Of a stretch of DNA of 64,000 nt, positions 39,953-64,000 are shown piece after piece (the stretch's first letter is position 1; every line of letters begins with the position of its first letter). A program made the position numbers and the translations under genes. The notes under the pieces were generated by a model that saw only the letters and a list, made by a program, of their open reading frames with translations, had not been told where the DNA came from and searched no databases. The stretch lies in NCBI RefSeq assembly GCF_009931435.1, contig NZ_CP043414.1. One strand, written 5' to 3'. The stretch is from Escherichia coli (GTDB taxonomy: Bacteria; Pseudomonadota; Gammaproteobacteria; Enterobacterales; Enterobacteriaceae).

Positions 39953-39969
39953 CCACACTTCACGGCAGT

Positions 39970-44096: not shown

Positions 44097-44102
44097 GCCA
44101 TT

Positions 44103-44798
44103 ATGTCCCGGTCAGCGAAACCTCAAAATGGTCGCCGCCGCTTTCTGCGCGATGTCGTTCGCACAGCTGGCGGGTTGGCTGCCGTGGGTGTGGCGCTGGG
44201 GTTACAACAGCAAACCGCACGCGCATCTGGTGTGCGGTTGCGCCCGCCCGGAGCCATAAACGAGAACGCCTTTGCCAGTGCCTGCGTACGTTGCGGTCAG
44301 TGTGTTCAGGCTTGCCCTTACGACACCTTAAAACTGGCGACACTGGCCTCTGGCCTGTCGGCAGGTACGCCGTACTTTGTCGCGCGGGATATTCCTTGCG
44401 AAATGTGTGAGGACATTCCGTGCGCCAAAGTGTGCCCGAGCGGTGCGCTGGATCGAGAGATCGAATCGATCGACGACGCGCGGATGGGGCTGGCGGTGCT
44501 GGTGGATCAGGAGAACTGCCTCAACTTTCAGGGGCTGCGCTGCGATGTTTGCTATCGCGAATGCCCGAAAATTGATGAGGCAATCACCCTGGAGCTGGAG
44601 CGTAACACGCGTACCGGTAAGCACGCCCGTTTTCTGCCGACGGTTCACAGCGACGCCTGTACCGGCTGCGGTAAGTGCGAAAAAGTGTGCGTGCTGGAAC
44701 AACCCGCAATCAAGGTGTTACCGCTGTCACTGGCGAAAGGGGAGTTAGGTCACCATTACCGCTTCGGCTGGCTGGAGGGGAACAATGGCAAATCGTAA
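44103..44798 (+). CDS. napG: Ferredoxin-type protein NapG
   Basis: 231-aa ORF; Tat-like N-terminus RRRFLR; 4Fe-4S Cys motifs. Confidence 0.95.
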
Positions 44799-45648
44799 AC
44801 GTGACGCCGGGCGCGAGGCGCTGGAGAAAAAAGGCTGGTGGCGCAGTCACCGTTGGCTGGTGCTGCGTCGCCTTTGTCAGTTCTTCGTGCTGGGGATGTT
44901 TTTGAGCGGTCCGTGGTTTGGTGTGTGGATCTTGCACGGCAACTACAGCAGTAGCCTGTTATTCGACACCGTTCCACTGACCGATCCGCTGATGACGCTG
45001 CAAAGTCTTGCCAGCGGTCATCTGCCTGCCACGGTAGCGCTGACTGGTGCGGTGATTATCACCGTGCTCTACGCCCTGGCAGGAAAGCGATTATTTTGCA
45101 GCTGGGTCTGCCCGCTGAACCCGATTACCGACTTAGCAAATTGGTTACGCAGACGATTTGACCTCAATCAGTCTGCGACGATCCCTCGCCACATTCGCTA
45201 CGTGCTGTTGGTGATCATTCTGGTGGGATCGGCCTTAACTGGCACGCTCATCTGGGAATGGATCAACCCCGTTTCCCTGATGGGGCGTAGCCTGGTAATG
45301 GGCTTCGGCAGCGGCGCGCTGCTTATTCTCGCGCTGTTTTTATTTGATCTACTGGTCGTTGAACACGGCTGGTGCGGGCACATTTGTCCGGTTGGTGCAC
45401 TGTATGGCGTGCTGGGTAGTAAAGGTGTGATTACCGTTGCGGCCACCGATCGGCAGAAATGTAACCGCTGTATGGATTGTTTTCATGTTTGCCCGGAACC
45501 GCATGTGCTACGTGCCCCGGTGCTGGATGAACAAAGCCCGGTGCAGGTCACCAGCCGCGATTGCATGACGTGCGGTCGCTGCGTGGATGTCTGTTCTGAG
45601 GATGTATTTACAATAACTACACGATGGAGTTCGGGAGCGAAATCATGA
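44785..45648 (+). CDS. napH: Membrane ferredoxin-type protein NapH
   Basis: 287-aa ORF with TM segments and C-terminal CxxCxxC motifs. Confidence 0.95.
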
Positions 45649-46094
45649 AAAGCCATGACCTGAAGAAAGCGCTGTGTCAATGGACGGCGATGCTGGCCCT
45701 GGTGGTAAGCGGCGCGGTTTGGGCGGCTAATGGCGTCGATTTTAGCCAGTCGCCGGAAGTATCCGGGACGCAGGAAGGGGCCATTCGGATGCCAAAAGAG
45801 CAGGATCGGATGCCGCTGAACTATGTGAATCAGCCGCCAATGATCCCGCATAGCGTTGAAGGTTATCAGGTAACGACCAATACCAACCGCTGCTTGCAGT
45901 GCCACGGTGTCGAAAGCTATCGCACCACTGGCGCGCCGCGCATCAGTCCTACTCACTTTATGGACAGCGACGGCAAAGTGGGCGCAGAAGTGGCTCCGCG
46001 TCGTTATTTCTGTCTGCAATGTCACGTACCGCAGGCCGATACCGCGCCAATCGTGGGGAATACCTTTACCCCATCAAAAGGTTACGGGAAATAA
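45645..46094 (+). CDS. napB: Dihaem cytochrome c NapB
   Basis: Start MKSHDLKK (149 aa); two CxxCH motifs (CLQCH twice); ATG overlaps the napH stop. Confidence 0.95.
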   Translation: MKSHDLKKALCQWTAMLALVVSGAVWAANGVDFSQSPEVSGTQEGAIRMPKEQDRMPLNYVNQPPMIPHSVEGYQVTTNTNRCLQCHGVESYRTTGAPRISPTHFMDSDGKVGAEVAPRRYFCLQCHVPQADTAPIVGNTFTPSKGYGK

Positions 46095-46103
46095 GAGGTT
46101 ATT

Positions 46104-46706
46104 ATGGGAAATTCTGACCGTAAGCCTGGTCTGATTAAGCGCCTGTGGAAATGGTGGCGTACCCCCAGCCGTCTGGCACTGGGGACGCTGCTGTTGATCG
46201 GCTTTGTTGGCGGTATCGTTTTCTGGGGCGGCTTTAACACCGGGATGGAAAAAGCTAACACTGAAGAGTTTTGCATTAGCTGCCACGAAATGCGTAACAC
46301 GGTGTATCAGGAATACATGGATTCCGTGCACTACAACAACCGTAGCGGCGTCCGTGCGACCTGTCCGGATTGTCACGTTCCGCACGAGTTTGTGCCGAAG
46401 ATGATACGCAAGCTCAAAGCAAGTAAAGAGCTGTATGGTAAAATTTTTGGCGTTATTGACACGCCGCAGAAATTTGAAGCTCATCGCCTGACGATGGCAC
46501 AGAATGAGTGGCGGCGCATGAAGGACAATAACTCGCAGGAGTGTCGTAACTGTCACAACTTCGAGTATATGGATACAACCGCCCAGAAATCAGTTGCCGC
46601 TAAGATGCACGACCAGGCGGTGAAAGATGGGCAAACCTGTATTGATTGCCATAAAGGGATAGCGCACAAGCTGCCCGATATGCGCGAAGTCGAGCCAGGT
46701 TTTTAA
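46104..46706 (+). CDS. napC: Tetrahaem cytochrome c NapC
   Basis: 200-aa ORF; four CxxCH motifs (CISCH, CPDCH, CRNCH, CIDCH). Confidence 0.95.
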   Translation: MGNSDRKPGLIKRLWKWWRTPSRLALGTLLLIGFVGGIVFWGGFNTGMEKANTEEFCISCHEMRNTVYQEYMDSVHYNNRSGVRATCPDCHVPHEFVPKMIRKLKASKELYGKIFGVIDTPQKFEAHRLTMAQNEWRRMKDNNSQECRNCHNFEYMDTTAQKSVAAKMHDQAVKDGQTCIDCHKGIAHKLPDMREVEPGF

Positions 46707-46718
46707 CAGGGTTATTGC

Positions 46719-47342
46719 GTGGGTATGCTTGAAGCCAGAGAGTTACTTTGCGAGCGGGATGAACGAACCTTATTTAGTGGTTTGTCATTTACGCTGAACG
46801 CAGGCGAGTGGGTACAAATCACCGGCAGCAACGGCGCGGGGAAGACAACGCTTCTCCGCTTGCTGACGGGGTTGTCTCGCCCTGACGCGGGTGACGTTCT
46901 CTGGCAAGGGCAGCCCTTGCATCAGGTACGCGACAGCTACCATCAAAACCTGTTATGGATAGGCCATCAGCCGGGGATCAAAACCCGGCTGACGGCGTTA
47001 GAAAATCTGCACTTTTATCATCGCGATGGCGATACCGCACAATGTCTGGAAGCCCTGGCGCAGGCCGGGCTTGCCGGATTCGAAGATATTCCGGTAAATC
47101 AACTTTCTGCCGGGCAACAACGCCGCGTCGCTTTAGCGCGTCTGTGGCTGACCCGTGCCACGTTATGGATCCTCGACGAGCCTTTTACCGCGATTGACGT
47201 CAACGGCGTCGATCGTCTGACCCAGCGTATGGCGCAGCATACGGAGCAGGGGGGGATTGTGATTCTGACTACCCACCAGCCGCTCAACGTTGCTGAAAGT
47301 AAAATTCGCCGCATTTCTCTGACGCATACTAGGGGCGCATGA
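46719..47342 (+). CDS. ccmA: Haem exporter ATPase CcmA
   Basis: 207-aa ORF (GTG start); Walker [13 protein letters not shown] signature LSAGQQRR. Confidence 0.93.
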
Positions 47343-48001
47343 TGTTCTGGCGCATTTTCCGTCTTGAGCTGCGCGTGGCGTTTCGCCATAGCGCCGAAAT
47401 CGCTAACCCGCTGTGGTTCTTCCTGATTGTTATTACCCTTTTTCCGCTCAGTATCGGTCCGGAGCCGCAACTGCTGGCGCGTATTGCGCCGGGCATTATC
47501 TGGGTTGCCGCGCTGCTTTCATCCTTGCTGGCACTCGAGCGACTGTTCCGTGACGATTTGCAGGACGGCAGTCTTGAACAATTGATGTTGTTGCCGTTAC
47601 CCTTGCCCGCCGTTGTGCTGGCGAAGGTGATGGCGCACTGGATGGTAACCGGTCTGCCGTTACTCATCCTTTCGCCTCTGGTAGCAATGCTACTGGGAAT
47701 GGATGTTTATGGCTGGCAAGTGATGGCGCTGACGCTGCTGCTGGGAACCCCAACGCTTGGTTTTCTCGGTGCGCCGGGCGTGGCGCTGACAGTGGGACTT
47801 AAGCGCGGTGGTGTGCTGCTCAGCATACTAGTGTTACCGCTGACTATCCCATTACTCATCTTTGCCACCGCCGCGATGGACGCGGCTTCTATGCATTTGC
47901 CCGTTGATGGGTATCTGGCAATTTTAGGCGCGTTGCTGGCAGGCACCGCGACATTAAGTCCTTTTGCGACGGCGGCAGCGTTACGAATCAGCATTCAATA
48001 A
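47339..48001 (+). CDS. ccmB: Haem exporter permease CcmB
   Basis: 220-aa membrane protein; start overlaps the ccmA stop. Confidence 0.95.
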
Positions 48002-48042
48002 CGCTGGATTACTGATTTTTGTTCGAGTCTGGTATCGAAACT

Positions 48043-48780
48043 ATGTGGAAAACACTGCATCAACTGGCGATCCCACCACGGCTGTATCAAATCTGTGGCT
48101 GGTTTATACCGTGGCTGGCAATTGCCAGTGTGGTCGTGCTTACCGTCGGCTGGATCTGGGGATTCGGCTTTGCTCCGGCTGATTATCAGCAGGGAAATAG
48201 CTACCGCATTATCTACCTGCATGTGCCTGCGGCGATCTGGTCTATGGGCATTTATGCATCAATGGCGGTGGCGGCGTTTATTGGCCTGGTCTGGCAGATG
48301 AAAATGGCCAACCTGGCGGTGGCGGCGATGGCCCCCATTGGTGCCGTGTTTACCTTTATTGCCCTGGTTACCGGCTCTGCATGGGGAAAACCGATGTGGG
48401 GCACCTGGTGGGTATGGGATGCACGCCTGACTTCTGAACTGGTGCTGCTGTTTTTGTATGTGGGTGTGATTGCCCTGTGGCACGCCTTCGACGATCGCCG
48501 TCTGGCAGGCCGTGCGGCAGGTATTCTGGTGCTGATTGGCGTGGTGAACCTGCCGATTATTCATTACTCCGTGGAGTGGTGGAACACCCTGCATCAAGGA
48601 TCAACGCGGATGCAGCAAAGTATTGATCCGGCAATGCGTTCGCCGCTGCGCTGGTCGATTTTTGGTTTCCTGCTGCTGTCTGCCACGCTGACGCTGATGC
48701 GGATGCGTAATTTGATTTTGCTGATGGAAAAACGCCGTCCGTGGGTGAGTGAACTGATACTGAAAAGAGGCCGTAAATGA
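48043..48780 (+). CDS. ccmC: Haem exporter / haem lyase component CcmC
   Basis: Start MWKTLHQL (245 aa); WWD motif WGTWWVWDARL. Confidence 0.93.
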   Translation: MWKTLHQLAIPPRLYQICGWFIPWLAIASVVVLTVGWIWGFGFAPADYQQGNSYRIIYLHVPAAIWSMGIYASMAVAAFIGLVWQMKMANLAVAAMAPIGAVFTFIALVTGSAWGKPMWGTWWVWDARLTSELVLLFLYVGVIALWHAFDDRRLAGRAAGILVLIGVVNLPIIHYSVEWWNTLHQGSTRMQQSIDPAMRSPLRWSIFGFLLLSATLTLMRMRNLILLMEKRRPWVSELILKRGRK

Positions 48781-48986
48781 CCCCTGCATTTGCTTCCTGG
48801 AATGAATTTTTCGCAATGGGCGGTTACGCCTTTTTTGTCTGGCTGGCGGTGGTGATGACCGTTATTCCGCTGGTGGCTTTGGTCGTGCATTCGGTGATGC
48901 AGCATCGCGCAATTCTGCGTGGCGTGGCGCAACAGCGGGCGCGTGAGGCGCGTTTACGTGCTGCGCAACAGCAGGAGGCTGCATGA
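48777..48986 (+). CDS. ccmD: CcmD
   Basis: 69-aa single-TM protein; overlaps the ccmC stop and the ccmE start. Confidence 0.9.
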
Positions 48987-49462
48987 ATATTCGCCGTAAA
49001 AACCGCTTGTGGATTGCCTGTGCCGTGCTGGCGGGGCTGGCACTGACTATCGGCCTGGTGTTGTATGCGCTGCGCTCGAATATCGATCTTTTTTATACGC
49101 CGGGGGAAATTCTCTACGGCAAGCGTGAAACTCAACAGATGCCGGAAGTCGGTCAGCGTCTGCGCGTTGGCGGGATGGTGATGCCGGGTAGTGTGCAGCG
49201 CGATCCCAATTCGCTGAAAGTAACGTTCACCATTTACGACGCTGAAGGTTCAGTAGATGTCTCTTACGAAGGCATTTTGCCGGATCTGTTCCGTGAAGGG
49301 CAGGGCGTAGTGGTGCAGGGCGAACTGGAAAAAGGTAATCATATCCTCGCGAAAGAAGTACTGGCGAAACACGATGAAAACTACACGCCGCCAGAAGTCG
49401 AGAAAGCGATGGAAGCTAATCACCGTCGCCCGGCGAGTGTTTATAAGGACCCAGCATCATGA
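48983..49462 (+). CDS. ccmE: Haem chaperone CcmE
   Basis: 159-aa ORF; N-terminal membrane anchor. Confidence 0.95.
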
Positions 49463-51402
49463 TGCCAGAAATTGGTAACGGACTGCTGTGCCTGGCGCTA
49501 GGAATTGCGCTGTTGCTGTCCGTGTATCCGCTATGGGGCGTGGCGCGCGGGGATGCGCGCATGATGGCTTCTTCGCGCTTGTTTGCATGGCTGCTATTTA
49601 TGTCTGTGGCTGGCGCATTTCTGGTGCTGGTCAATGCTTTCGTGGTGAATGACTTTACTGTCACCTATGTTGCCAGCAACTCCAATACCCAGCTTCCGGT
49701 GTGGTATCGCGTAGCGGCAACCTGGGGTGCGCATGAAGGCTCGCTACTGCTGTGGGTGCTGCTGATGAGCGGCTGGACATTTGCGGTGGCGATTTTTAGT
49801 CAGCGTATTCCGCTGGATATTGTGGCCCGTGTACTGGCGATAATGGGGATGGTCAGTGTCGGCTTTTTGCTGTTCATTCTCTTTACCTCTAACCCGTTCT
49901 CACGCACGTTGCCGAACTTCCCGATTGAAGGGCGCGATCTTAACCCGCTGTTGCAGGATCCAGGGCTGATCTTCCATCCGCCTCTGCTCTATATGGGGTA
50001 CGTTGGTTTCTCGGTGGCGTTTGCTTTTGCCATTGCTTCTTTGCTGAGTGGGCGTCTGGACAGCACTTACGCACGCTTTACCCGTCCGTGGACGCTGGCG
50101 GCGTGGATCTTCCTGACGCTCGGCATTGTGCTCGGTTCCGCATGGGCCTATTACGAACTCGGCTGGGGCGGCTGGTGGTTCTGGGATCCGGTAGAAAACG
50201 CCTCATTTATGCCGTGGTTGGTGGGTACTGCGCTGATGCACTCGCTGGCGGTCACTGAACAGCGTGCCAGCTTCAAAGCGTGGACATTACTGCTGGCAAT
50301 CAGTGCCTTCTCGCTGTGTCTGCTGGGGACTTTCCTTGTGCGTTCCGGCGTGCTGGTATCAGTACACGCGTTTGCGTCTGATCCGGCGCGCGGTATGTTT
50401 ATCCTCGCTTTTATGGTGCTGGTGATTGGCGGTTCGCTGCTGCTGTTTGCCGCGCGTGGACACAAAGTTCGCTCACGCGTAAACAATGCGCTGTGGTCGC
50501 GGGAATCTCTGCTGTTAGCGAACAACGTTTTGCTGGTCGCCGCAATGCTGGTGGTATTGCTGGGGACGCTGCTGCCGCTGGTGCATAAGCAACTTGGGCT
50601 GGGCAGTATTTCGATAGGTGAACCGTTCTTCAACACTATGTTTACCTGGCTGATGGTGCCGTTTGCGCTACTGCTTGGTGTCGGTCCACTGGTGCGCTGG
50701 GGGCGCGATCGCCCACGTAAAATCCGCAATTTATTGATTATCGCCTTCATCTCTACGCTGGTGCTGTCTCTGCTGTTGCCGTGGCTGTTCGAAAGTAAAG
50801 TTGTGGCGATGACGGTGCTCGGCCTGGCTATGGCCTGCTGGATTGCAGTGCTGGCGATTGCGGAAGCTGCGCTGCGTATTTCACGCGGCACGAAAACCAC
50901 CTTTAGTTATTGGGGCATGGTGGCGGCTCACCTGGGGCTGGCGGTAACAATTGTTGGTATTGCCTTTAGCCAGAACTATAGCGTTGAGCGTGATGTGCGC
51001 ATGAAGTCCGGTGATAGCGTCGATATTCATGAATATCGCTTCACCTTCCGTGATGTCAAAGAAGTGACTGGTCCGAACTGGCGTGGTGGTGTGGCGACTA
51101 TCGGCGTAACGCGAGAGGGCAAGCCGGAAACGGTGCTGTATGCGGAAAAACGTTATTACAACACTGCCGGGTCGATGATGACCGAAGCGGCGATTGACGG
51201 CGGCATCACGCGTGACCTGTACGCAGCTCTCGGTGAAGAGTTGGAAAACGGCGCGTGGGCTGTGCGTCTTTACTACAAACCGTTTGTTCGCTGGATTTGG
51301 GCGGGCGGGCTGATGATGGCGTTGGGCGGGCTGCTGTGCCTGTTTGATCCTCGCTATCGTAAGCGCGTAAGCCCGCAAAAAACTGCGCCGGAGGCTGTAT
51401 GA
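49459..51402 (+). CDS. ccmF: Cytochrome c haem lyase subunit CcmF
   Basis: 647-aa polytopic protein; WWD domain [12 protein letters not shown]. Confidence 0.96.
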
Positions 51403-51956
51403 AGCGCAAAGTATTGTTAATTCCTTTGATTATCTTCCTGGCGATTGCCGCGGCGTTGCTGTGGCAGCTGGCACGTAATGCCGAAGGGGATGATCCGACC
51501 AATCTGGAATCGGCGCTCATTGGCAAGCCGGTGCCAAAGTTTCGCCTCGAATCACTGGACAACCCGGGGCAGTTTTATCAGGCGGATGTGCTGACTCAGG
51601 GCAAACCAGTGCTGCTTAACGTCTGGGCGACCTGGTGTCCGACCTGCCGTGCGGAACATCAATATCTGAATCAGCTTTCTGCGCAGGGCATCCGCGTAGT
51701 TGGCATGAACTATAAAGACGATCGCCAGAAAGCGATCAGCTGGCTGAAAGAGCTGGGCAATCCTTACGCGTTAAGCCTGTTTGATGGCGACGGCATGTTA
51801 GGGCTGGATCTCGGTGTCTATGGCGCGCCAGAAACGTTCCTCATCGACGGCAACGGCATCATTCGCTATCGCCATGCGGGCGATCTCAATCCTCGCGTCT
51901 GGGAAGAAGAGATCAAGCCGCTGTGGGAGAAATACAGTAAGGAGGCCGCACAATGA
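51399..51956 (+). CDS. ccmG: Thiol:disulfide interchange protein CcmG/DsbE
   Basis: 185-aa ORF; thioredoxin motif WCPTC. Confidence 0.95.
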   Translation: MKRKVLLIPLIIFLAIAAALLWQLARNAEGDDPTNLESALIGKPVPKFRLESLDNPGQFYQADVLTQGKPVLLNVWATWCPTCRAEHQYLNQLSAQGIRVVGMNYKDDRQKAISWLKELGNPYALSLFDGDGMLGLDLGVYGAPETFLIDGNGIIRYRHAGDLNPRVWEEEIKPLWEKYSKEAAQ

Positions 51957-53005
51957 GGTTTTTATTGGGCGTGCTGATGCTGATGATCTCCGGCTCAGCG
52001 CTGGCGACCATCGACGTGTTGCAGTTTAAAGATGAAGCACAGGAACAACAGTTTCGTCAGCTTACTGAAGAACTGCGCTGCCCGAAATGCCAGAACAACA
52101 GCATTGCCGATTCCAACTCGATGATTGCCACCGACCTGCGCCAGAAAGTGTATGAACTGATGCAGGAAGGTAAAAGTAAGAAAGAGATTGTCGATTATAT
52201 GGTGGCGCGTTACGGCAACTTCGTCACTTACGACCCGCCGTTAACGCCGCTGACCGTTCTGCTGTGGGTGCTACCGGTGGTGGCTATTGGCATTGGCGGT
52301 TGGGTCATTTACGCCCGCTCGCGGCGTCGGGTACGCGTGGTGCCGGAAGCGTTTCCTGAACAAAGCGTGCCGGAAGGTAAGCGTGCCGGATATGTTGTTT
52401 ATCTGCCGGGTATTGTGGTGGCGTTAATTGTGGCTGGCGTCAGCTACTACCAGACCGGCAATTATCAGCAGGTGAAAATTTGGCAGCAGGCCACGGCACA
52501 GGCGCCGGCGTTATTGGACAGGGCGCTGGATCCGAAAGCTGAGCCGCTCAACGAAGAAGAGATGTCCCGCCTTGCGCTGGGGATGCGTACTCAACTGCAA
52601 AAAAATCCGGGAGATATAGAAGGCTGGATTATGTTGGGCCGCGTTGGCATGGCGCTGGGTAACGCCAGTATTGCCACCGATGCATACGCCACTGCGTATC
52701 GCCTCGATCCGAAGAACAGCGATGCTGCACTCGGATACGCTGAAGCGTTGACACGTTCATCTGATCCCAACGACAACCGCCTGGGTGGTGAACTGCTACG
52801 CCAGTTAGTAAGAAGCGACCACAGCAATATCCGTGTGTTAAGCATGTATGCGTTCAATGCCTTTGAGCAGCAGCGATTTGGCGAAGCCGTTGCCGCGTGG
52901 GAGATGATGTTGAAACTCTTACCTGCCAACGATACTCGCCGTGCGGTGATTGAACGCAGTATCGCGCAGGCGATGCAACACTTATCACCACAGGAGAGTA
53001 AATAA
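51953..53005 (+). CDS. ccmH: Cytochrome c maturation protein CcmH
   Basis: 350-aa ORF; LRCPKC motif; C-terminal TPR-like region. Confidence 0.95.
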   Translation: MRFLLGVLMLMISGSALATIDVLQFKDEAQEQQFRQLTEELRCPKCQNNSIADSNSMIATDLRQKVYELMQEGKSKKEIVDYMVARYGNFVTYDPPLTPLTVLLWVLPVVAIGIGGWVIYARSRRRVRVVPEAFPEQSVPEGKRAGYVVYLPGIVVALIVAGVSYYQTGNYQQVKIWQQATAQAPALLDRALDPKAEPLNEEEMSRLALGMRTQLQKNPGDIEGWIMLGRVGMALGNASIATDAYATAYRLDPKNSDAALGYAEALTRSSDPNDNRLGGELLRQLVRSDHSNIRVLSMYAFNAFEQQRFGEAVAAWEMMLKLLPANDTRRAVIERSIAQAMQHLSPQESK

Positions 53006-53064
53006 GAACAAGCCCGATGGTGATGCCATCGGGCCAGACTGATGGCAAAGTGCGCTTTGTTTAT

Positions 53065-53163
53065 GCCAGATGCGGCGTAAACGCCTTATTCAGCCTACAA
53101 AATCGTGCGAACTCAATACATTGCTCGATCCGCGTAGGCCTGATAAGCGTAGCGCATCAGGCA
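53065..53163. repeat. REP pair (BIME) downstream of ccmH
   Basis: gccagatgcggcgtaaacgccttattcagcctac and inverted gtaggcctgataagcgtagcgcatcaggc. Confidence 0.8.
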
Positions 53164-53186
53164 GTTTTGCGTTTGTCATCAATATC

Positions 53187-53219
53187 AGCCCGAGGGTAAA
53201 TCCATCGGGCTATTTTTTT
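53187..53219 (+). terminator. Probable rho-independent terminator closing the nap-ccm operon
   Basis: Stem agcccga/tcgggct followed by a T-run; overlaps the narP stop codon. Confidence 0.55.
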
Positions 53220-53865
53220 ATTGTGCCCCACGTTGTTGCAGGAACAGAATGGTGGCCGCCACGCGTGAGCGGACATTGAGTTTACGCAGCAGATTGCGAA
53301 TGTGTACTTTTACTGTCTGCTCGGAAATATTCAACACCGAGGCAATCTGTTTATTTGACAGTCCCTGTGCCAGCTCGTGCAGAACATCCAGCTCGCGCTC
53401 CGTCAGCACGCTGAAGGGATCTTCTTCCGCGCCAAACATTTCACGTTCACGTAAGTACTGATTGACGCGTTCGCTAAAGACTTTGCTGCCTTTCGCTCCG
53501 GCACGAATCGCTTCCAACAACACTTCCGGATCGCTGTCTTTCAACAGATAACCGTCTGCGCCTGCGTCTATCAGCGCAAACACATCGCTGGAGGCATCTG
53601 ATACGGTCAGGATAATAATTTGCGCGGTAACGCCATCCCTGCGCAAGGCATTGAGGGTATCCAGGCCACTCATACCTTTCATATTGAGATCCAGCAAGAT
53701 CACGTCGATATCCAGTCTATTCGCCAGATCGATAGCACTCGCGCCGTCGCCCGCTTCGGCGACCACTTCAAAGCCAGGATCAAGCTCCAGTAACTGACGA
53801 ACACCGCGTCGCATAAGTGGATGATCATCCACAATCATCACCTGAAAAGGCGTTGCTTCAGGCAT
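53218..53865 (-). CDS. narP: Nitrate/nitrite response regulator NarP
   Basis: Start MPEATPFQVMIVDDHP (215 aa) inside the 225-aa ORF; receiver plus LuxR-type HTH. Confidence 0.95.
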   Translation of the reverse strand: MPEATPFQVMIVDDHPLMRRGVRQLLELDPGFEVVAEAGDGASAIDLANRLDIDVILLDLNMKGMSGLDTLNALRRDGVTAQIIILTVSDASSDVFALIDAGADGYLLKDSDPEVLLEAIRAGAKGSKVFSERVNQYLREREMFGAEEDPFSVLTERELDVLHELAQGLSNKQIASVLNISEQTVKVHIRNLLRKLNVRSRVAATILFLQQRGAQ

Positions 53866-54184
53866 AGTAGTCTCCTGAGGTTTTATTAGAATCATTATGT
53901 TTGAGCGTAGCGTTGGAAACGCTACCAGGCGCGTGAATGTTACCCCATTTTATGTATGGACATGTAGTGAAAAGTACAGCTCAGTAGTTCACCCTCGCAT
54001 CATTTTCATTATAAATATGGAATTTTGCATCAACTTCCCATCAAGAAAAACAACTAAAAAATCAATCACAATACATGTGCATTTCTTTAAACAGTTTTTA
54101 AAAACTGACTCCGGGTATGGAGCTATGGGTATTTTCAGTACCCAATGCTTTTGACAGCAATTAATTTCATAGGATGAAAGCTCA

Positions 54185-56779
54185 ATGCATCAATCTGGTT
54201 CTGTTTCTCTTTGTCGTTCCGCAATATCTGTTCTGGTGGCTACAGCGTTATATTCACCCATAGCATTGGCATCAACTGTTGAGTATGGTGAGACAGTTGA
54301 TGGTGTTGTCCTGGAAAAAGATATCCAGCTGGTTTATGGGACCGCCAATAATACGAAAATCAATCCTGGCGGAGAACAGCATATAAAAGAATTTGGTGTA
54401 AGTAATAATACTGAAATTAACGGAGGGTATCAGTACATTGAAATGAATGGCACCGCAGAATACTCAGTATTAAATGACGGTTATCAAATTGTTCAAATGG
54501 GTGGCGCGGCAAACCAGACTACCCTCAATAATGGTGTGCTACAGGTTTATGGCGCAGCGAATGATACTACCATTAAAGGCGGGCGCTTAATTATTGAAAA
54601 AGATGGCATTGCCATCTTCGCCGTTATCGAAAAGGGAGGACTACTGGAGGTTAAAGATGGCGGATTGGCATTTGCGGTAGATCAAAAAGCAGGCGGTGCG
54701 ATTAAAACAACCACGCGGGCCATGGAGGTATTCGGAACAAACCGTCTCGGTCAGTTTGATATCAAAGATGGGGTTGCTAACAATATGCTGTTGGAAAACG
54801 GCGGAAGTTTGCGGGTTGAAGAGAATGACTTCGCTTATAATACCACTGTGGATAGTGGTGGTTTACTGGAGGTTATGGATGGCGGGACTGCAACTGGCGT
54901 TGACAAAAAAGCAGGCGGAAAATTAATTGTTTCAACGAATGCGCTGGAAGTGAGTGGTACAAACAGTAAAGGCCAATTTAGCATAAAAGATGGCGTGTCT
55001 AAAAATTATGAACTGGATGATGGTTCCGGGCTAATTGTTATGGAGGGCACTCAGGCAATTGACACTATCCTTGATGAGCATGCAACCATGCAATCGTTGG
55101 GAAGAGATACTGGTACGAGAGTGCAGGCACATGCAGTTTATGATCTTGGTCGGTCAGTGCAGAATGGAAGCATAAAATATTCCTCAAATGCCATATCTGA
55201 AAATATGGTTATCGATAATGGTCGCGCTAATGTCTGGACTGGCACAATGGTTAACGTAACAGTCAGAGGAAATGAGGGCATTATTGATGCAATGGCGCTA
55301 GAATTAAATTTTTATACACCGGCTACATTTTTAGGTGACTTGGTGGTTTCTGATGGTGCATCTTTAAGAACGCATGGCGCAGTGGATACCAGTAAAGCAG
55401 ATGTTTCTATCGAAGAGAGTTTTTGGACTATTATTGCCGATATCAATAATATAAACCAAAACACCCGTCTCAATTTAGCAAACCTGGTGATGTCAGACGG
55501 AACTGTCGTTATGATGGCTGAGCCAGTGACTCGTTCATCTGTGACGGCAAGTGCGGAAAATTTCACTACGTTGACCACCAATACCCTATCGGGAAACGGC
55601 AATTTTTATATGCGTACCGATATGGCTAATCATCAGAGCGATCAGCTCAACGTGACCGGTCAGGCAACAGGTGATTTCAAAATATTTGTGACGGACACGG
55701 GGGCCAGCCCGGCAGCAGGTGATAGCCTTACACTGGTAACAACGGGCGGCGGTGATGCTGCATTTACCTTGGGCAATGCCGGAGGCGTTGTTGATATCGG
55801 TACGTATGAATATACCTTGCTGGATAATGGCAACCATAGCTGGAGTCTGGCAGAGAATCGCGCGCAAATTACCCCTTCAACCACTGATGTGCTGAATATG
55901 GCGGCAGCGCAACCGCTGGTATTTGATGCAGAACTGGACACCGTGCGTGAGCGTCTTGGTAGCGTAAAAGGCGTTAATTACGATACGGCGATGTGGAGTT
56001 CGGCAATTAACACCCGCAACAACGTAACCACTGATGCGGGAGCTGGCTTTGAGCAAACATTGACGGGGCTGACGCTCGGTATCGATAGCCGTTTCTCCCG
56101 TGAAGAAAGCAGCACAATTCGTGGCTTATTCTTTGGTTACTCTCATTCTGATATTGGTTTTGATCGCGGCGGTAAAGGTAATATCGATAGCTATACTCTG
56201 GGTGCTTATGCCGGTTGGGAGCATCAAAACGGTGCCTATGTTGACGGGGTGGTGAAAGTTGACCGTTTTGCCAACACCATCCATGGCAAGATGAGTAATG
56301 GGGCAACAGCGTTTGGCGATTACAATAGTAACGGCGCGGGTGCTCATGTCGAGAGCGGGTTCCGTTGGGGGGAGGGGCTGTGGAATGTAAGGCCTTATCT
56401 GTCCTTTACCGGCTTTACCACTGATGGTCAGGACTATACGTTATCAAACGGCATGCACGCGGATGTGGGAAATACCCGCATATTACGCGCTGAAGCGGGA
56501 ACGGCGGTAAGCTATCACATGGACCTGCAAAACGGTACGACGCTGGAACCCTGGCTGAAAGCCGCCGTGCGTCAGGAATACGCCGATTCTAACCAAGTGA
56601 AAGTTAATGACGACGGCAAATTTAATAATGACGTGGCTGGAACCCGTGGCGTTTATCAGGCTGGGATAAGGTCATCGTTTACCCCGACGTTAAGCGGTCA
56701 TTTGTCTGTCAGCTATGGCAATGGCGCGGGGGTAGAATCACCGTGGAATACCCAGGCGGGTGTGGTCTGGACGTTCTGA
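54185..56779 (+). CDS. yejO: Autotransporter YejO (passenger with repeated beta-helix motifs, C-terminal beta-barrel ending in F); intact here
   Basis: 864-aa uninterrupted ORF; signal-like N-terminus; C-terminus ...GVVWTF. Confidence 0.88.
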   Translation: MHQSGSVSLCRSAISVLVATALYSPIALASTVEYGETVDGVVLEKDIQLVYGTANNTKINPGGEQHIKEFGVSNNTEINGGYQYIEMNGTAEYSVLNDGYQIVQMGGAANQTTLNNGVLQVYGAANDTTIKGGRLIIEKDGIAIFAVIEKGGLLEVKDGGLAFAVDQKAGGAIKTTTRAMEVFGTNRLGQFDIKDGVANNMLLENGGSLRVEENDFAYNTTVDSGGLLEVMDGGTATGVDKKAGGKLIVSTNALEVSGTNSKGQFSIKDGVSKNYELDDGSGLIVMEGTQAIDTILDEHATMQSLGRDTGTRVQAHAVYDLGRSVQNGSIKYSSNAISENMVIDNGRANVWTGTMVNVTVRGNEGIIDAMALELNFYTPATFLGDLVVSDGASLRTHGAVDTSKADVSIEESFWTIIADINNINQNTRLNLANLVMSDGTVVMMAEPVTRSSVTASAENFTTLTTNTLSGNGNFYMRTDMANHQSDQLNVTGQATGDFKIFVTDTGASPAAGDSLTLVTTGGGDAAFTLGNAGGVVDIGTYEYTLLDNGNHSWSLAENRAQITPSTTDVLNMAAAQPLVFDAELDTVRERLGSVKGVNYDTAMWSSAINTRNNVTTDAGAGFEQTLTGLTLGIDSRFSREESSTIRGLFFGYSHSDIGFDRGGKGNIDSYTLGAYAGWEHQNGAYVDGVVKVDRFANTIHGKMSNGATAFGDYNSNGAGAHVESGFRWGEGLWNVRPYLSFTGFTTDGQDYTLSNGMHADVGNTRILRAEAGTAVSYHMDLQNGTTLEPWLKAAVRQEYADSNQVKVNDDGKFNNDVAGTRGVYQAGIRSSFTPTLSGHLSVSYGNGAGVESPWNTQAGVVWTF

Positions 56780-56840
56780 TAACAGAAAATAAACAGGCCG
56801 TAATGTGTCGCGGTCTGTTTATCAAATTAATCGCAGATAT

Positions 56841-56872
56841 AAAAAAACCAACCACAATAGGTTGGTTTTCTT
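56841..56872. terminator. Bidirectional terminator between yejO and proL
   Basis: A7 run, stem ccaacc/ggttgg, T-run. Confidence 0.65.
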
Positions 56873-56880
56873 GGGATTTT

Positions 56881-56957
56881 TGGTCGGCACGAGAGGATTT
56901 GAACCTCCGACCCCCGACACCCCATGACGGTGCGCTACCAGGCTGCGCTACGTGCCG
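56881..56957 (-). tRNA. proL: tRNA-Pro (anticodon GGG)
   Basis: Minus strand reads CGGCACGTAGCGCAGCCTGGTAGCGCACCGTCATGGGGTGTCGGGGGTCGGAGGTTCAAATCCTCTCGTGCCGACCA: 7-bp acceptor stem, T-loop TTCAAAT, anticodon loop with GGG, encoded CCA. Confidence 0.92.
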
Positions 56958-57031
56958 ACTCGTGGCTGCTAATACTACCGTTTTCCACAACGAATGCAAG
57001 TAAGATATTTCGCTAACTGATTTATAATTAA

Positions 57032-58792
57032 TCAGTTAGCGATAAAACGCTTCTCGTCTGTCAGCACCTGCAATAACAAACTTAACTGTGGTTTTTCATC
57101 TTTCACTCTTTCACCACGTAAGTTGTACGTGCGGTATTTACCGTTATTGTTCAGCACTAACGTCATTTTCGGGGTGGTAATTGCCAGCGTATCGTTATCC
57201 GCAGCCGTAACCCAGTAATGACGGCGTTGGGGGTTGAACAAATCCTGACCTTGTGAATATTCGCTGGCAGGTGTGCTGACATGTAGCAGGCGTTGCATCA
57301 GTGTCGTCATCAGATCGGTATGATCGGTCAGGGCATTAATACGCTGCGCCGGTGTGCCGGGCCAGTGAATCACTAATGGCACCTGAAGATGACCGTGGGA
57401 CCAGTCAAAGGTTTCTTCCCCTTCGTTCAGCGGAATACCCCGACCGGCAGTGATAATCACTACCGTATTGACCAGTTTGCCGGAATCACGCAGCGCATTT
57501 AGCACGCGGTTGATCTGGTCATCAACATTGCCTGCCGCCCGGCTATATTTCCGTGCAAATGCCAGCTGATTGCTGTCGTCAATGTTAGTGCCATTGAAAG
57601 ACACCCACGAGAACCAGCGGTTATCTTCTTGTGCGTAGCGGCCCAGCCAGTTGATCCACTGCGTGGCGGTCTGCTCGTCGGATTGGGTACGTACGCTCGG
57701 CATCGAGAAATCTGACAACAATGCCTGGCGATACAGCGGGCTGGTAAAGCCATCTGATGAGAATAACCCCAGCTGATAGCCTTGCTGATTAAGCGCAGTA
57801 ATTAACGCCGCAGGCGTACGGGTCGACAGAATGCCGTCCATATAGCTTGGCGAGATGCCATAGAACAGGCCAAAGATGCCGTTGTCTGTAGTGTTGCCGG
57901 AGCTCATATGGCGCGTGAACGAAATATTTTGCTCAGCAAAACCTGCCAGCGCAGGCATCTGCTTCTCGAAGCGTGAGTAGTTCAGGCCATCGACAGTAAT
58001 CAACAGCACATTCTGCCCGGTGCCCATATCGCGATAGCGCAGTTCGCTTAACGGATACTGAACGGAAACAGCGTCTGGGTTACCTTGCTCAATGAGACGG
58101 CGTTGATACTCTTGTGCATCAAGCAAACCATGCTTCTCAAGAAAACGTCGTGCCGTCATCGGGTACGAAAGCGGCAGGTTAGCGCGCTGCATGGTGATCG
58201 GGCGATAGAAGTTGGCATCGGCCCAGATATACACCACATGCGAGGCAATAAAAGCGATAAATAAGAATGCGGCCAGCGGGCGCACGAAGCGCCGACGACG
58301 CGTCAGGCTGCGTAGCTTTTGCCAGCTCCACGTCGCAAACACCAGTTCAAGCAATAAAATAACCGGCACGCTAATGAACATCAGCTGCCAGTCGCGCGCC
58401 ATCTCATTTTCGTCTGGGTTGATAACCAACTGCCAGACGATGGGATTAAGATGGAGATGGAAACGAGTAAAGACTTCGCTATCGATCAGTAATAGCGTCA
58501 TTCCCGCCGTTGCTAAAATGACGGACAAAAACCTCATCAGCCTCTGGGAGCCGACGATAAAAGTCAGCGGGAAGAGGATCAGCAAGTAGGTGGCGAACAC
58601 CAGGAAGCTGAAATGGCCGATAATGCTTACGTAGGAATAAATGCGACCAGCAAGCGTTGTCGGCCAGTCGGCGATAAACAGGTAACGGCTGCCAATGACG
58701 AGCGAAAGCAGAATATTGAACAGTGCAAACCAGTGCCCCCAACTGACCATCTGAGAGACTTTTTCACGGTAGCGCTGACGATGAGTTACCAT
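57032..58792 (-). CDS. yejM: Inner-membrane protein YejM (LapC), sulfatase-like periplasmic domain
   Basis: 586-aa ORF MVTHRQRYREK...; five N-terminal TM helices. Confidence 0.95.
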   Translation of the reverse strand: MVTHRQRYREKVSQMVSWGHWFALFNILLSLVIGSRYLFIADWPTTLAGRIYSYVSIIGHFSFLVFATYLLILFPLTFIVGSQRLMRFLSVILATAGMTLLLIDSEVFTRFHLHLNPIVWQLVINPDENEMARDWQLMFISVPVILLLELVFATWSWQKLRSLTRRRRFVRPLAAFLFIAFIASHVVYIWADANFYRPITMQRANLPLSYPMTARRFLEKHGLLDAQEYQRRLIEQGNPDAVSVQYPLSELRYRDMGTGQNVLLITVDGLNYSRFEKQMPALAGFAEQNISFTRHMSSGNTTDNGIFGLFYGISPSYMDGILSTRTPAALITALNQQGYQLGLFSSDGFTSPLYRQALLSDFSMPSVRTQSDEQTATQWINWLGRYAQEDNRWFSWVSFNGTNIDDSNQLAFARKYSRAAGNVDDQINRVLNALRDSGKLVNTVVIITAGRGIPLNEGEETFDWSHGHLQVPLVIHWPGTPAQRINALTDHTDLMTTLMQRLLHVSTPASEYSQGQDLFNPQRRHYWVTAADNDTLAITTPKMTLVLNNNGKYRTYNLRGERVKDEKPQLSLLLQVLTDEKRFIAN

Positions 58793-58811
58793 AACCTGTT
58801 ATCTGTTTCCC

Positions 58812-59039
58812 TTAGTGCGCTTTGTCTTCGTTGATAGAGGACTGTAAGGCGCGGGCAAAAGAGTTGGCAATTGCCTGGCGTTGGGCCGGGGCAATGCTGG
58901 TGTTGATAAGGTTAGTGACCATGTTGCCTAACACCATCAGGGAAAGGTCGGTCGGAGCCTTATGTTTTTCCAGTACGTTGAGCAGCTCTGCGAGCAATTG
59001 TTCAACCTGTTCATCACTGTAGCGGGAAATTTGTGGCAT
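58812..59039 (-). CDS. yejL: UPF0352-family small protein YejL
   Basis: 75-aa [19 protein letters not shown]... immediately upstream of yejM. Confidence 0.9.
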
Positions 59040-59220
59040 AAATCGAAATCAGTTAGTTGATGAAAGGGCAACATATTACCGTAGCAACGGTTTTTTTTCT
59101 GCTTTTTTATGCGTTAAATCATTCTCGTTACGCCGCCTTCTGTAAAATGACCGCCATCTTTTATTGCGTCGCTTTACCGGCGGTGGTTGAATACCGGCCG
59201 GTCTTAAAGGAGAGTTTATC

Positions 59221-60228
59221 ATGAGTCTGGATATCAACCAGATTGCTCTGCACCAGCTTATCAAGCGTGATGAGCAGAACCTTGAGCTGGTGTTGCGCGA
59301 TTCATTGCTGGAACCGACAGAAACCGTCGTAGAGATGGTGGCAGAACTGCATCGGGTCTATAGCGCCAAAAATAAAGCATACGGCTTGTTCAGCGAAGAG
59401 AGTGAACTGGCGCAGACGCTGCGCTTACAGCGTCAGGGCGAAGAGGACTTTCTGGCATTTAGCCGCGCGGCAACCGGTCGCCTGCGTGACGAATTAGCGA
59501 AATATCCTTTTGCTGACGGTGGATTCGTGCTGTTTTGCCACTATCGCTATCTGGCGGTGGAGTATCTGCTGGTGGCAGTTCTGAGCAACCTGAGCAGTAT
59601 GCGTGTTAACGAAAATCTCGACATCAACCCAACCCATTATCTTGATATCAATCATGCGGATATTGTTGCGCGTATCGATTTAACCGAGTGGGAAACCAAT
59701 CCAGAGTCGACCCGCTATCTCACTTTCCTGAAAGGGCGAGTAGGGCGCAAAGTGGCCGATTTCTTCATGGACTTCCTCGGTGCCAGCGAAGGGTTGAACG
59801 CGAAAGCGCAAAACCGCGGATTATTGCAGGCGGTTGATGATTTCACTGCCGAAGCACAACTGGATAAAGCAGAACGGCAGAACGTGCGTCAGCAGGTCTA
59901 CAGCTACTGTAATGAGCAATTGCAGGCGGGTGAAGAGATCGAGCTTGAATCGCTGTCGAAAGAGCTGGCGGGCGTCAGCGAAGTGAGCTTCACGGAATTT
60001 GCGGCTGAAAAAGGCTACGAACTTGAAGAGAGCTTCCCGGCAGACCGTAGCACGTTGCGTCAGTTGACGAAGTTTGCCGGTAGCGGCGGTGGCTTGACTA
60101 TTAACTTTGATGCGATGCTGTTGGGCGAACGGATTTTCTGGGATCCGGCGACCGATACCCTGACCATTAAAGGCACGCCGCCGAACCTGCGCGATCAATT
60201 GCAGCGCCGGACGTCTGGCGGCAATTAA
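59221..60228 (+). CDS. yejK: Nucleoid-associated protein YejK (NdpA)
   Basis: 335-aa [22 protein letters not shown]... Confidence 0.95.
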
Positions 60229-60247
60229 TCGGTTTGGTGTTATGAAT

Positions 60248-60281
60248 GCCAGATGCGGCGTGAACGCCTTATCTGGCCTAC
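60248..60281. repeat. Single REP element downstream of yejK
   Basis: gccagatgcggcgtgaacgccttatctggcctac. Confidence 0.75.
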
Positions 60282-60321
60282 AAAAAATAGCAATACCGTA
60301 ATCAGGCATAATTTGCAGATA

Positions 60322-60352
60322 CAAAAAACCCCGCCGGAGCGGGGTTTTTTTT
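60322..60352. terminator. Bidirectional rho-independent terminator shared by yejK and rplY
   Basis: A6, stem ccccgc-cggagc-gggg, T8. Confidence 0.8.
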
Positions 60353-60368
60353 ACAACTTATTCAGCGA

Positions 60369-60761
<393 letters not shown>

Positions 60762-60777
60762 TCAATTAAAACTACCA

Positions 60778-62538
60778 TTAACCGCGTAATTCGTGTGCCC
60801 GACGAAAACGACCTTCGTAATCAAACACTTTTTCGCGCACTTGCCAGTACTGGCCTTTCATTCGTGCGACGACGAAATCCGGATGGCGCAGCAACGCTTG
60901 TTGGGCGAGGATATCAGCAGCGGTGATCCAGCGCAGAGGGATGCCCGGTGTACGCGTATGCGGGCGGATAAAAAGCTGCTCGAAGGCGGTACGCTGGGCG
61001 GGCGTTTGCAGACGGAAACGCTCACTCACATCCGCGCCGTCTTCATCGTAATAGGTGATTTTCAGCCATTCGCCTTTCTCGTCGTGCCCATGCTGTAAAG
61101 ACATGCCGCTACAGCGTAATACCAGCGCGTCTTTCAGTCGTAGCGCCGCTTTTAACATATCGTCCGGATCAACCAGAATGGTGTCACATTCGCGGCAGCG
61201 GCGGGCGGCTATATCATTTTCTGCGTTACATTGTGGGCAATTCTTAAAACGGAAGCGGAAGTCACACTGTTCGCGATGACCGTCGTCATCTTCAAACCAT
61301 CCCTGACAACGACGACCAAAGTGTTCAATCAATGTCCCGTCAGCGGTCGTTTTCCCCCAAAAGGTGTTGGCAAAACCGCAGGCAGGGCAGAAAACCTGTA
61401 CCGGAACGTTGTCACTTTTTCCTTTCGGTGTACCGACCTCCGGCGCGTAGAGATCGTGAGGATTACCCGCATAATCAAGAATTAAGCAATCAGTCTTGCC
61501 TGGAGCCAGACGCAGACCGCGCCCGACAATTTGTTGGTAAAGACTCACCGATTCGGTAGGGCGCAGAATAGCGATAAGATCGACGTGCGGGGCGTCAAAT
61601 CCGGTGGTCAGTACCGCGACGTTGACCAGATAGCGAAAACGCTGGGCTTTAAAATCTTCAATTAATACATCGCGTTCAGCGCCGGGCGTGTCGCCGGTAA
61701 TAAGTGCTGCATCCTCAGCGGGCAGCAAGCCGACAATCTCTTTTGCGTGTTCGACTGTCGCAGCGAAAATCATCACCCCTTTGCGCGTTGCGGCGAACTC
61801 CATAATCTGGCTGATGATGTGCGGGGTAATACGTTGCTGTTTTTTCAGCTCACGGTTGAGATCGGCTTCGCTGAACAGCCCGTTACTCTGTGCCTGCAAT
61901 CGGCTGAAATCGTATTGCACTACTGGCATATCCAGTCGTTCTGGCGGCGTCAGATAGCCGTGTTTAATCATATAACGCAGCGGCAGCTCATAAATACAGT
62001 CGCGGAAAAGGGCTTTCTCATCGCCGCGTACCATGCCGTGATAATGAAACTGATAAATCCAGCCTTTGCCCAACCGAAAAGGCGTGGCAGTCAGCCCTAA
62101 CAGGCGTAATCGGGGATTCACTTTTGTCAGGTGAGTGAGGATTTGCTGATACTGGCTCTCTTCATCGTCACCAATACGATGGCATTCATCGACAATCAAC
62201 AGTGAAAATTCACCCTGAAAGGCATCAAGGTTACGGGCGACCGATTGCACGCTGCCAAATACTACTTTACCGTGGCTCTCTTTACGCTTTAGCCCAGCGG
62301 CAAAGATATCGGCTTCCAGTCCCAGCGCCTGATATTTTGCATGGTTTTGCGCCACCAGCTCTTTAACGTGTGCCAGCACCAGCACACGACCACGCGCCAG
62401 CCGCGCCAGTTCCGCTATCACCAGGCTTTTACCGGCACCGGTGGGCAGCACGATAACGGCAGGGGTTTTATGACGACGAAAATGGTTGAGCGTGGCATCC
62501 ACGGCTTCTTGCTGATATGGACGGAGTGTAAAAATCAT
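60778..62538 (-). CDS. radD: Superfamily-2 DNA repair helicase RadD (YejH)
   Basis: 586-aa ORF; Walker [13 protein letters not shown] box, C-terminal Zn-finger-like Cys cluster. Confidence 0.95.
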
Positions 62539-62686
62539 GGTCTCGCGTAGGTAGATTATTCTGCTAATAGTATGCCACGGATCTTTTTCCCTTGAGGGAA
62601 GTTATTAGACCGCTATACTGGGCAGACAACAGTTCAGATTTTCGGGTCAATGCCCGACCTCCGTTTTTACAGGCAAAATCACACAC

Positions 62687-63382
62687 ATGCGACTTGATAA
62701 ATTTATCGCACAGCAACTCGGCGTAAGCCGTGCTATTGCCGGGCGTGAAATCCGCGGCAATCGTGTCACCGTCGATGGCGAAATCGTCCGTAACGCAGCG
62801 TTCAAACTGCTACCTGAACATGAAGTCGCTTACGATGGCAATCCGCTGGCGCAGCAACACGGTCCACGTTACTTCATGCTCAATAAGCCTCAGGGCTATG
62901 TTTGCTCAACTGATGACCCGGATCACCCAACGGTGCTCTATTTTCTTGATGAACCGGTAGCGTGGAAACTGCACGCCGCAGGGCGTCTGGATATCGATAC
63001 CACCGGTCTGGTGCTGATGACTGATGATGGTCAGTGGTCGCACCGCATTACTTCTCCGCGCCATCATTGCGAGAAGACCTATCTGGTGACGCTGGAATCA
63101 CCCGTAGCTGACGATACGGCAGAGCAATTTGCTAAAGGCGTGCAGCTGCATAACGAAAAAGATCTCACTAAGCCGGCGAGGCTGGAAGTGATTACCCCAA
63201 CGCAGGTTCGTCTGACCATCAGCGAAGGGCGTTATCATCAGGTGAAACGCATGTTCGCCGCCGTGGGTAACCACGTGGTTGAGCTGCATCGTGAACGTAT
63301 TGGCGGCATTACGCTGGATGCTGATTTAGCCCCCGGTGAATATCGTCCGTTAACTGAAGAAGAAATTGCCAGCGTCGTCTAA
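62687..63382 (+). CDS. rsuA: 16S rRNA pseudouridine(516) synthase RsuA
   Basis: 231-aa [18 protein letters not shown]... (S4 domain) plus pseudouridine synthase core. Confidence 0.95.
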
Positions 63383-63409
63383 CTTTTTAATGACTTTCAG
63401 GAGCCCGTT

Positions 63410-64000
63410 GTGACCACCCGACAGCATTCGTCGTTTGCTATTGTTTTTATCCTTGGCCTGCTGGCCATGTTGATGCCGCTGTCGATTGATATGTATCTGC
63501 CCGCGCTACCGGTAATTTCAGCGCAATTTGGCGTACCTGCGGGCAGTACGCAGATGACCCTCAGTACTTATATTCTGGGCTTTGCGTTGGGGCAGTTAAT
63601 CTACGGGCCAATGGCAGACAGTTTCGGGCGTAAGCCGGTGGTTCTTGGCGGTACGCTGGTGTTTGCCGCCGCCGCGGTGGCGTGTGCGTTGGCACAAACC
63701 ATCGATCAGCTGATTGTGATGCGTTTCTTCCACGGTCTGGCTGCGGCTGCGGCCAGCGTGGTTATCAACGCTTTAATGCGTGATATCTACCCGAAGGAAG
63801 AGTTCTCACGGATGATGTCGTTTGTCATGCTGGTGACGACCATTGCACCGCTGATGGCACCGATAGTTGGCGGCTGGGTGCTGGTGTGGCTGAGCTGGCA
63901 TTACATCTTCTGGATCCTCGCCGTAGCGGCGATTCTGGCTTCGGCAATGATCTTCTTTCTGATCAAAGAAACCTTACCACCGGAGCGTCGCCAGCCTTTT
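63410..64000 (+). CDS. bcr: MFS bicyclomycin/multidrug efflux transporter Bcr (5-prime part; runs off the window end)
   Basis: GTG start after a caggag RBS; translation (V)[33 protein letters not shown]..., open to the window end; not in the ORF track because it has no stop. Confidence 0.85.

Follow-up and report, generated by a model that had tools for sequence, protein, structure and literature searches.

The narP–yejO spacer at positions 53866–54184 of the window, by which we mean the whole 64,000-nucleotide stretch of DNA that we analysed, is in our judgement (at a probability of roughly 85%) a normal divergent regulatory region from a lineage well outside K-12, most likely Escherichia cryptic clade I, with the lesions borne by K-12 alone. 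Two lineage-specific lesions that are missing here set K-12 apart: an IS5K insertion in yejO, flanked by a TTAT duplication, and a TGG-to-TGA change at codon 1368 of yfaS. An earlier note on this DNA had placed the IS5 copy of K-12 strain MG1655 between narP and yejO, and had read the short, uninterrupted spacer as the mark of a different background. However, the spacer of MG1655 (2290181–2290499, with narP starting at 2290500) is likewise 319 bp long and free of insertion, and it is in one piece in 5,353 of 5,426 complete E. coli genomes, so its continuity does not tell K-12 from other strains. MG1655 is equally uninterrupted in the spacer, but not in yejO.

The insertion lies inside the gene. 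In MG1655, IS5K occupies 2288919–2290113 and splits yejO 67 nt past its ATG, in the apparent signal-peptide region (CDS nt 64–67); yejO (b2190) is annotated there as a pseudogene, as the earlier note had stated, in two pieces around IS5K, the first of which is a 67-nt fragment (2290114–2290180). A BLAST comparison of the K-12-type locus with the window yielded two segments that overlap by 4 bp at 54248–54251 and stand 1,195 bp apart. The 1,195-bp insert is bounded by GGAAGGTGCG...CGCACCTTCC, which are IS5 ends, and by the duplicated TTAT, with one copy on each side of IS5K (2547–2550 and 3746–3749 of the K-12-type locus). Both the IS5 ends and the target-site duplication are present in K-12, within yejO and not within the spacer. 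The usual IS5 target is YTAR, from which TTAT departs. By contrast, the window aligns gap-free across the K-12 insertion point, and the terminal inverted repeats of the 1,195-bp element (GGAAGGTGCGAACAAG) have no match near the locus with up to three mismatches; over the whole window, the same search returned a single three-mismatch chance match, at 44670. No IS-like terminal inverted repeats were found in 53000–54400. The description of the spacer itself as AT-rich and free of IS sequence was thus accurate (GC content of 36.4%, against 51.7% for the whole window). Published work agrees that IS5K is inside yejO in K-12, not between genes (PMC11005336), and places yejO among the targets that carry IS5 within the gene (PMC11677980).

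The second lesion is of a different kind. K-12 yfaS (b4500) is indeed a pseudogene, but its disruption is a single internal stop, a TGA at codon 1368, rather than a structural interruption; in the window, this codon is TGG and yfaS runs through 1,534 residues with no internal stop. Across the 5,426 complete E. coli genomes, the exact yejO::IS5 junction occurs in 357, and two full-length examples among the matches listed are the laboratory strains ER1709 and DH10B, consistent with a marker of the K-12 lineage. The intact state seen here predominates and is, we infer, ancestral. That K-12 has yejO::IS5K and a nonsense yfaS, both intact in most other E. coli, can already be read in the MG1655 annotation and in the literature. 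Three points are usefully corrected: IS5 lies inside yejO, the spacer is equally long in K-12, and a hairpin in the transcribed narP leader is genus-wide. The features of the window are collected in Table 1.

Table 1. Features of the window, numbered from its first nucleotide; positions with a sign are relative to the narP start codon or, for the hypervariable patch, to the start of the long leader.
Feature	Position	Strand	Description	Remarks
yfaS	10414..15018	+	Intact, 1,534 aa, alpha-2-macroglobulin family	Codon 1368 (14515–14517) is TGG
narP CDS	53218..53865	-	215 aa; CAT at 53863–53865	From ORF list and homologous-locus annotation
Region homologous to RprA pairing site / translation initiation region	53862..53900	-	-35 to +4	A-rich AAN motifs, Shine-Dalgarno
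Putative narP 5' UTR	53866..54015	-	150 nt from distal K-12 start site	Projected through gap-free alignment
narP–yejO divergent intergenic region	53866..54184		319 bp, 36.4% GC	No mobile element
Perfect 8-bp stem, 3-nt loop	53907..53925	-	GUAGCGUU-UCC-AACGCUAC in narP sense	-60 to -42; nt 91–109 of 150-nt leader
Hypervariable patch	53974..53996	-	10 of the 18 spacer differences from K-12, in 23 nt	+20 to +42 of long leader
Second hairpin, TGGGTATT-TTC-AGTACCCA	54126..54144	+	8 pairs including one G-T	41–59 nt upstream of yejO ATG
yejO	54185..56779	+	Intact, 864 aa, type Va autotransporter	
TTAT, target site duplicated around IS5K in K-12	54248..54251	+	yejO CDS nt 64–67	Single, unoccupied here
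proL tRNA-Pro(GGG)	56881..56957	-		Bounds yejO module on far side

Both genes that are broken in K-12 encode complete proteins here. As had been reported, yejO is continuous, with a single terminal stop, and its product combines a beta-helical passenger (AIDA repeats, PF16168, E = 7e-53; pertactin, PF03212, E = 5.3e-45) with a C-terminal autotransporter beta-barrel (PF03797, residues 603–842, E = 5.8e-45), behind an N-terminus, MHQSGSVSLCRSAISVLVATALYSPIALA/STVE, that looks by eye like a Sec signal peptide. Its amino-acid sequence shares 92.9% identity with that of the K-12 product after removal of IS5, and the two differ in length by one codon. YfaS has its MG2, bait-region, A2M and bMG10 domains (PF01835, PF07703, PF00207 and PF17973, all above cut-offs) in one continuous ORF, and a C.EQ search found no CxEQ thioester motif in its 1,534 residues, which would fit the YfaS type and not the ECAM/YfhM type. 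Proteins of the YfaS type typically have no CxEQ. The yfaS ORF has its first ATG at 10399, and this precedes the start that corresponds by homology to the K-12 annotation by 15 nt.

The intactness of the two genes and their full domain sets uphold part of the earlier claim that this strain has two potentially functional envelope proteins; judged from their open reading frames, YejO and YfaS are both potentially functional, although an uninterrupted frame does not by itself imply expression. They may instead be silent or cryptic genes on the way to decay, whose intactness has no phenotypic meaning. We rate this as possible, at appreciably less than even odds, in view of how often yejO has decayed independently. 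Besides the IS5 insertion in K-12, UTI89-like strains have a yejO remnant with an internal deletion and a stop (UTI89 locus 3482–4279), and in AH21C082 the gene is truncated by IS26, with narP removed as well (locus 4000–4745). Strain 1002W03 has a yejO remnant beside an integrated element that encodes PerC, ProQ/FinO and SSB near proL (locus 3482–4405), and the gene is entirely absent from two other Escherichia species representatives. The yejO promoter region is, moreover, AT-rich, and a sigma-70 consensus scan called no promoter in 53000–54400. Against decay, most E. coli genomes retain full-length yejO DNA (at least 80% of the narP–yejO query is present in 4,278 of the 5,426 complete genomes), and every domain of a working autotransporter has been kept despite 7% protein divergence from K-12, which suggests purifying selection. 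Because a yejO homologue is still present at this locus in E. albertii, loss is the more economical account of the yejO-less lineages.

The background does differ from MG1655, as the earlier note proposed, although 'non-K-12' understates the distance. Over its whole length the window runs collinear with MG1655 2344799–2279170, at an overall identity of 95.8%, and structurally the two differ only in IS5K and in how many copies they have of a 113-bp tandem repeat. This repeat, at eco–mqo (39750–39963), has 1.9 copies here and about six in the MG1655 alignment (2304390–2305065). Among the 5,426 complete E. coli genomes, the closest over narP–yejO is RMDEC465 (99.0%); over yfaS it is WCHEC050613 (98.8%) among the matches listed, with eight further genomes counted at ≥99%. 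Over 20000–44000, four genomes reach 98.6–98.8% and the next 97.3%. The supplement of Okuno et al. 2023 (PMC10100065) lists one of the four, 2020CK-00188, under clade I; according to that paper, members of the clade share an average nucleotide identity of >98.3%, and their identity to E. coli sensu stricto is >95.9%. Strain 2020CK-00188 is 98.0–98.6% identical to our sequence, a figure for the window only. These identities indicate that the source is probably a cryptic-clade-I-like Escherichia, and this likely origin is the most informative by-product of the analysis.

An ordinary E. coli sensu stricto, in which locally recombined or fast-evolving genes lower the identity to K-12, would be an unlikely source, even though few genes here diverge more than yejO and yfaS (92.9–95%) and the closest genome shifts along the window. 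Over 44001–64000, in particular, the best identity is 98.6%, many genomes stand at 98.3% and the ranking has no clean gap, which could reflect recombination. Yet the divergence from MG1655 is spread over the window (95.6%, 96.9% and 95.3% in the three long aligned segments), and, those eight unlisted yfaS matches aside, none of the matches listed from the 5,426 genomes exceeds about 99%. The 24 kb over which the four genomes (including the documented clade I member) are clearly separated from all others consists mostly of housekeeping genes.

Within this background, NarP itself is hardly changed, with one residue different from K-12 in a protein comparison (F32 here, S32 in K-12). Among the GTDB species representatives scanned with NarP, strain E69 has a 100% identical protein, although its DNA is only 93.4% identical. 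The spacer differs from that of MG1655 at 18 positions and is matched at ≥95% in only 63 genomes, with 5,360 at 90–95%. The differences are unevenly placed, and -108 to -1 of narP contains just one, at -52, a base of the hairpin loop.

The two yejO-less Escherichia species (locus 1–140 in the first, 3440–3680 in the second) lose homology to the window at 53973 and regain it at 56832, immediately beyond the proL terminator; in the second, proL and its terminator adjoin the narP leader at a distance of about 108 bp from the start codon. The spacer is therefore composite: its narP-proximal ~108 bp are a core that is also found in yejO-less Escherichia and that carries the proximal narP promoter and leader, whereas the distal ~211 AT-rich bp belong to a 2.86-kb present/absent yejO module (53974–56831) beside proL. 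The module has a GC content of 47%, and the distal narP start site would fall within it. A small inversion beside the junction was considered on account of a 7-mer, CACCCTC, shared with the first of the two yejO-less species, and was dismissed as coincidence. An 85-aa ORF at 53897–54154, for which a Pfam search gave no match, was treated as spurious. A search of Rfam 15 over 52900–57100 at E ≤ 1 had no match in the spacer and returned only the tRNA-Pro and two sub-threshold matches to REP-related sRNAs outside it. These two (naRNA4 and ES036) lie in the 212-bp ccmH–narP gap (53006–53217), on a REP-like element at about 53130–53170 that is flanked by two near-identical hairpins (53011–53034 and 53187–53210). 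The gap is only 34 bp in UTI89, and RMDEC465 has IS621 there. On the yejO side of the spacer, the second hairpin of Table 1 mirrors the position of the narP-side hairpin; it is variable among strains, and one of its pairs is broken in UTI89.

For K-12 narP, a leader of 150 nt from a distal start site has been described, with a 78-nt leader also mentioned, and pairing with the small RNA RprA has been validated at nt 116–154, that is, -35 to +4 (Brosse et al. 2022, PMC9262595). The narP start sites given here for this strain are putative, placed from that K-12 literature. Across -35 to -1, the spacer part of the RprA site to which the comparison is limited, the window does not differ from MG1655. 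Variation is concentrated instead in a patch at 53974–53996 that abuts the yejO-module junction and truncates an upstream ORF predicted for K-12 (PMC9262595) from MPKRTTRL to MRG. Pairing of SdsN137 with narP is reportedly the subject of a study by Hao et al. in 2016. The first 50 nt of the long leader are described in PMC9262595 as sufficient for a second, unexplained control by RprA; the patch is a natural variant of these 50 nt and could serve to probe that control. In the passages of PMC12266141 that mention narP, NarP figures as a regulator of isrB, and the narP–yejO locus is not their subject.

The earlier note also drew attention to a hairpin at 53907–53925 'just upstream of narP'. The perfect 8-bp stem is as described but the location needs amending: lying at -60 to -42, the palindrome would be inside either transcribed leader, of 150 or of 78 nt. 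Nor is it a feature of this particular background. K-12, UTI89, RMDEC465 and the two other Escherichia species representatives have the same stem, base for base, as the window, whereas the loop varies (TCC, ACC or AAC); in E. albertii the outermost pair is lost. The main text of PMC9262595 contains neither the word hairpin nor stem-loop, and the stem at nt 91–109 appears undiscussed there. The palindrome, GTAGCGTT-GGA-AACGCTAC, has its sole match in the 64-kb window at this position when up to two mismatches are allowed. The hairpin is present in both the minimum-free-energy and the centroid folds of the narP leader, and the 39-nt context around it has a folding energy of -10.3 kcal/mol. Taken over its full length, the leader is folded no more stably than shuffled sequences (z = 0.16). 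No intrinsic terminator was called at 53907–53925 on either strand, and no T-run follows the palindrome on either strand; the same scan did call the hairpin at 54126–54144.

Statistically, such a hairpin is in itself no more than mildly improbable; what speaks for it is its conservation. When the spacer was shuffled by mononucleotides, 3.9% of the shuffles had at least one equal hairpin, and about 20 different perfect stems of ≥8 bp with loops of 3–8 nt occur in the window. A functionless chance inverted repeat, carried along within the conserved narP-proximal leader, is an explanation to which we give a little less than an even chance. Conservation is not specific evidence for the stem because the whole narP-proximal 108 bp are nearly invariant in E. 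coli, and the loss of the outermost pair in E. albertii, the lack of a palindrome-matching Rfam family and the lack of significant covariation in sister genera also speak for a chance repeat. What this explanation accommodates less readily is that three divergent Escherichia lineages keep the stem exactly but have three different loop sequences.

The sister genera offer a second point against chance. The leaders of Citrobacter and Salmonella contain a longer, unrelated two-tier stem-loop at about -65 to -33 from the narP ATG, with a conserved apical GAAUCUGGACGA, whose end lies as far from the A-rich initiation region as that of the Escherichia hairpin. RNAalifold found no structure common to the leaders of Escherichia, Citrobacter and Salmonella, since their hairpins lack homology in register. 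Within Citrobacter and Salmonella, several variants of the lower stem look compensatory (for example CAGCGCG/UGCGCUG, CAGCACAU/AUGUGCUG and UCGAU/AUCGA), and pair counting gave 78% pairing in register, compared with no more than 39% after sliding. This value was not above the shuffle control and three rows were one base out of register, so the counting is suggestive only.

The palindrome could also act as DNA, as an operator for a dimeric transcription factor at the proximal narP promoter, for example in autoregulation by NarP or NarL. A perfect dyad about 20–40 bp downstream of the proximal start-site position (that of the 78-nt leader) would occupy a typical place for a repressor roadblock. 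Its half-sites are, however, unlike the NarL/NarP heptamer, and a site of the 7-2-7 form (TACYYMT-N2-AKRRGTA) was rejected at the palindrome, which has no match to this consensus. The 7-2-7 scan of the window stood at chance level (30 matches found, 29 expected), and in the spacer it returned only three-mismatch matches, neither on the palindrome. That the palindrome occurs once only in 64 kb also weighs against an operator, and we know of no factor with such a site; we consider this explanation very improbable. One of the three-mismatch matches in the spacer, TACCCCATTTTATGTA at 53941–53956, is at chance frequency for the window and overlaps the likely proximal narP -10 region.

If the palindrome does have a role, we favour one in RNA. 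Transcribed in the narP 5' UTR, it would most likely form a stem-loop directly 5' of the single-stranded A-rich stretch where Hfq (through its distal face) and RprA act, and might serve as a structural boundary or stabiliser of their docking site. A stem-loop that delimits the Hfq/sRNA docking region is a reading that we offer tentatively, from position and predicted folding. A broader proposal would have the stem-loop function post-transcriptionally, either as a docking boundary for Hfq, RprA and SdsN137 or as a barrier to 5' decay, with an analogous but non-homologous counterpart in Citrobacter and Salmonella, and would have the rewriting of +20 to +42 alter the second RprA control in clade-I-like strains; taken as a whole, this is unlikely.

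Set against known systems, the source resembles Escherichia cryptic clade I in its identities, at about 95.8% to K-12 and 98.0–98.8% to the nearest genomes, including 2020CK-00188, with the difference that the comparison spans 64 kb only, part of which (44001–64000) lacks clean separation. YejO has the order of (apparent) signal peptide, AIDA repeats, pertactin domain and beta-barrel of AIDA-I-type (type Va) autotransporter adhesins, but is a putative adhesin known here from its sequence. YfaS shares its MG2, bait-region, A2M and bMG10 domains, and its cluster yfaA-yfaT-yfaS-yfaQ-yfaP, with bacterial alpha-2-macroglobulins, and differs from YfhM/ECAM in lacking the CxEQ thioester. The leader matches the K-12 narP 5' UTR that is under RprA, SdsN137 and Hfq (PMC9262595) in having an identical -35 to -1 with its AAN motifs, and departs from it in 11 substitutions within the first 50 nt of the long leader and in the cut of the predicted upstream ORF from 8 to 3 aa. 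The closest counterpart overall is the MG1655 locus (b2193, b2190 and IS5K/insH8 b2192), which has the same gene order (ccmH, narP, yejO, proL, yejM/lapC), the same spacer length, an identical hairpin stem and a -108 to -1 segment alike but for one loop base. It differs in yejO, where the DNA is 92.9% identical and the window, having no IS5K at 54248–54251, keeps the gene continuous.
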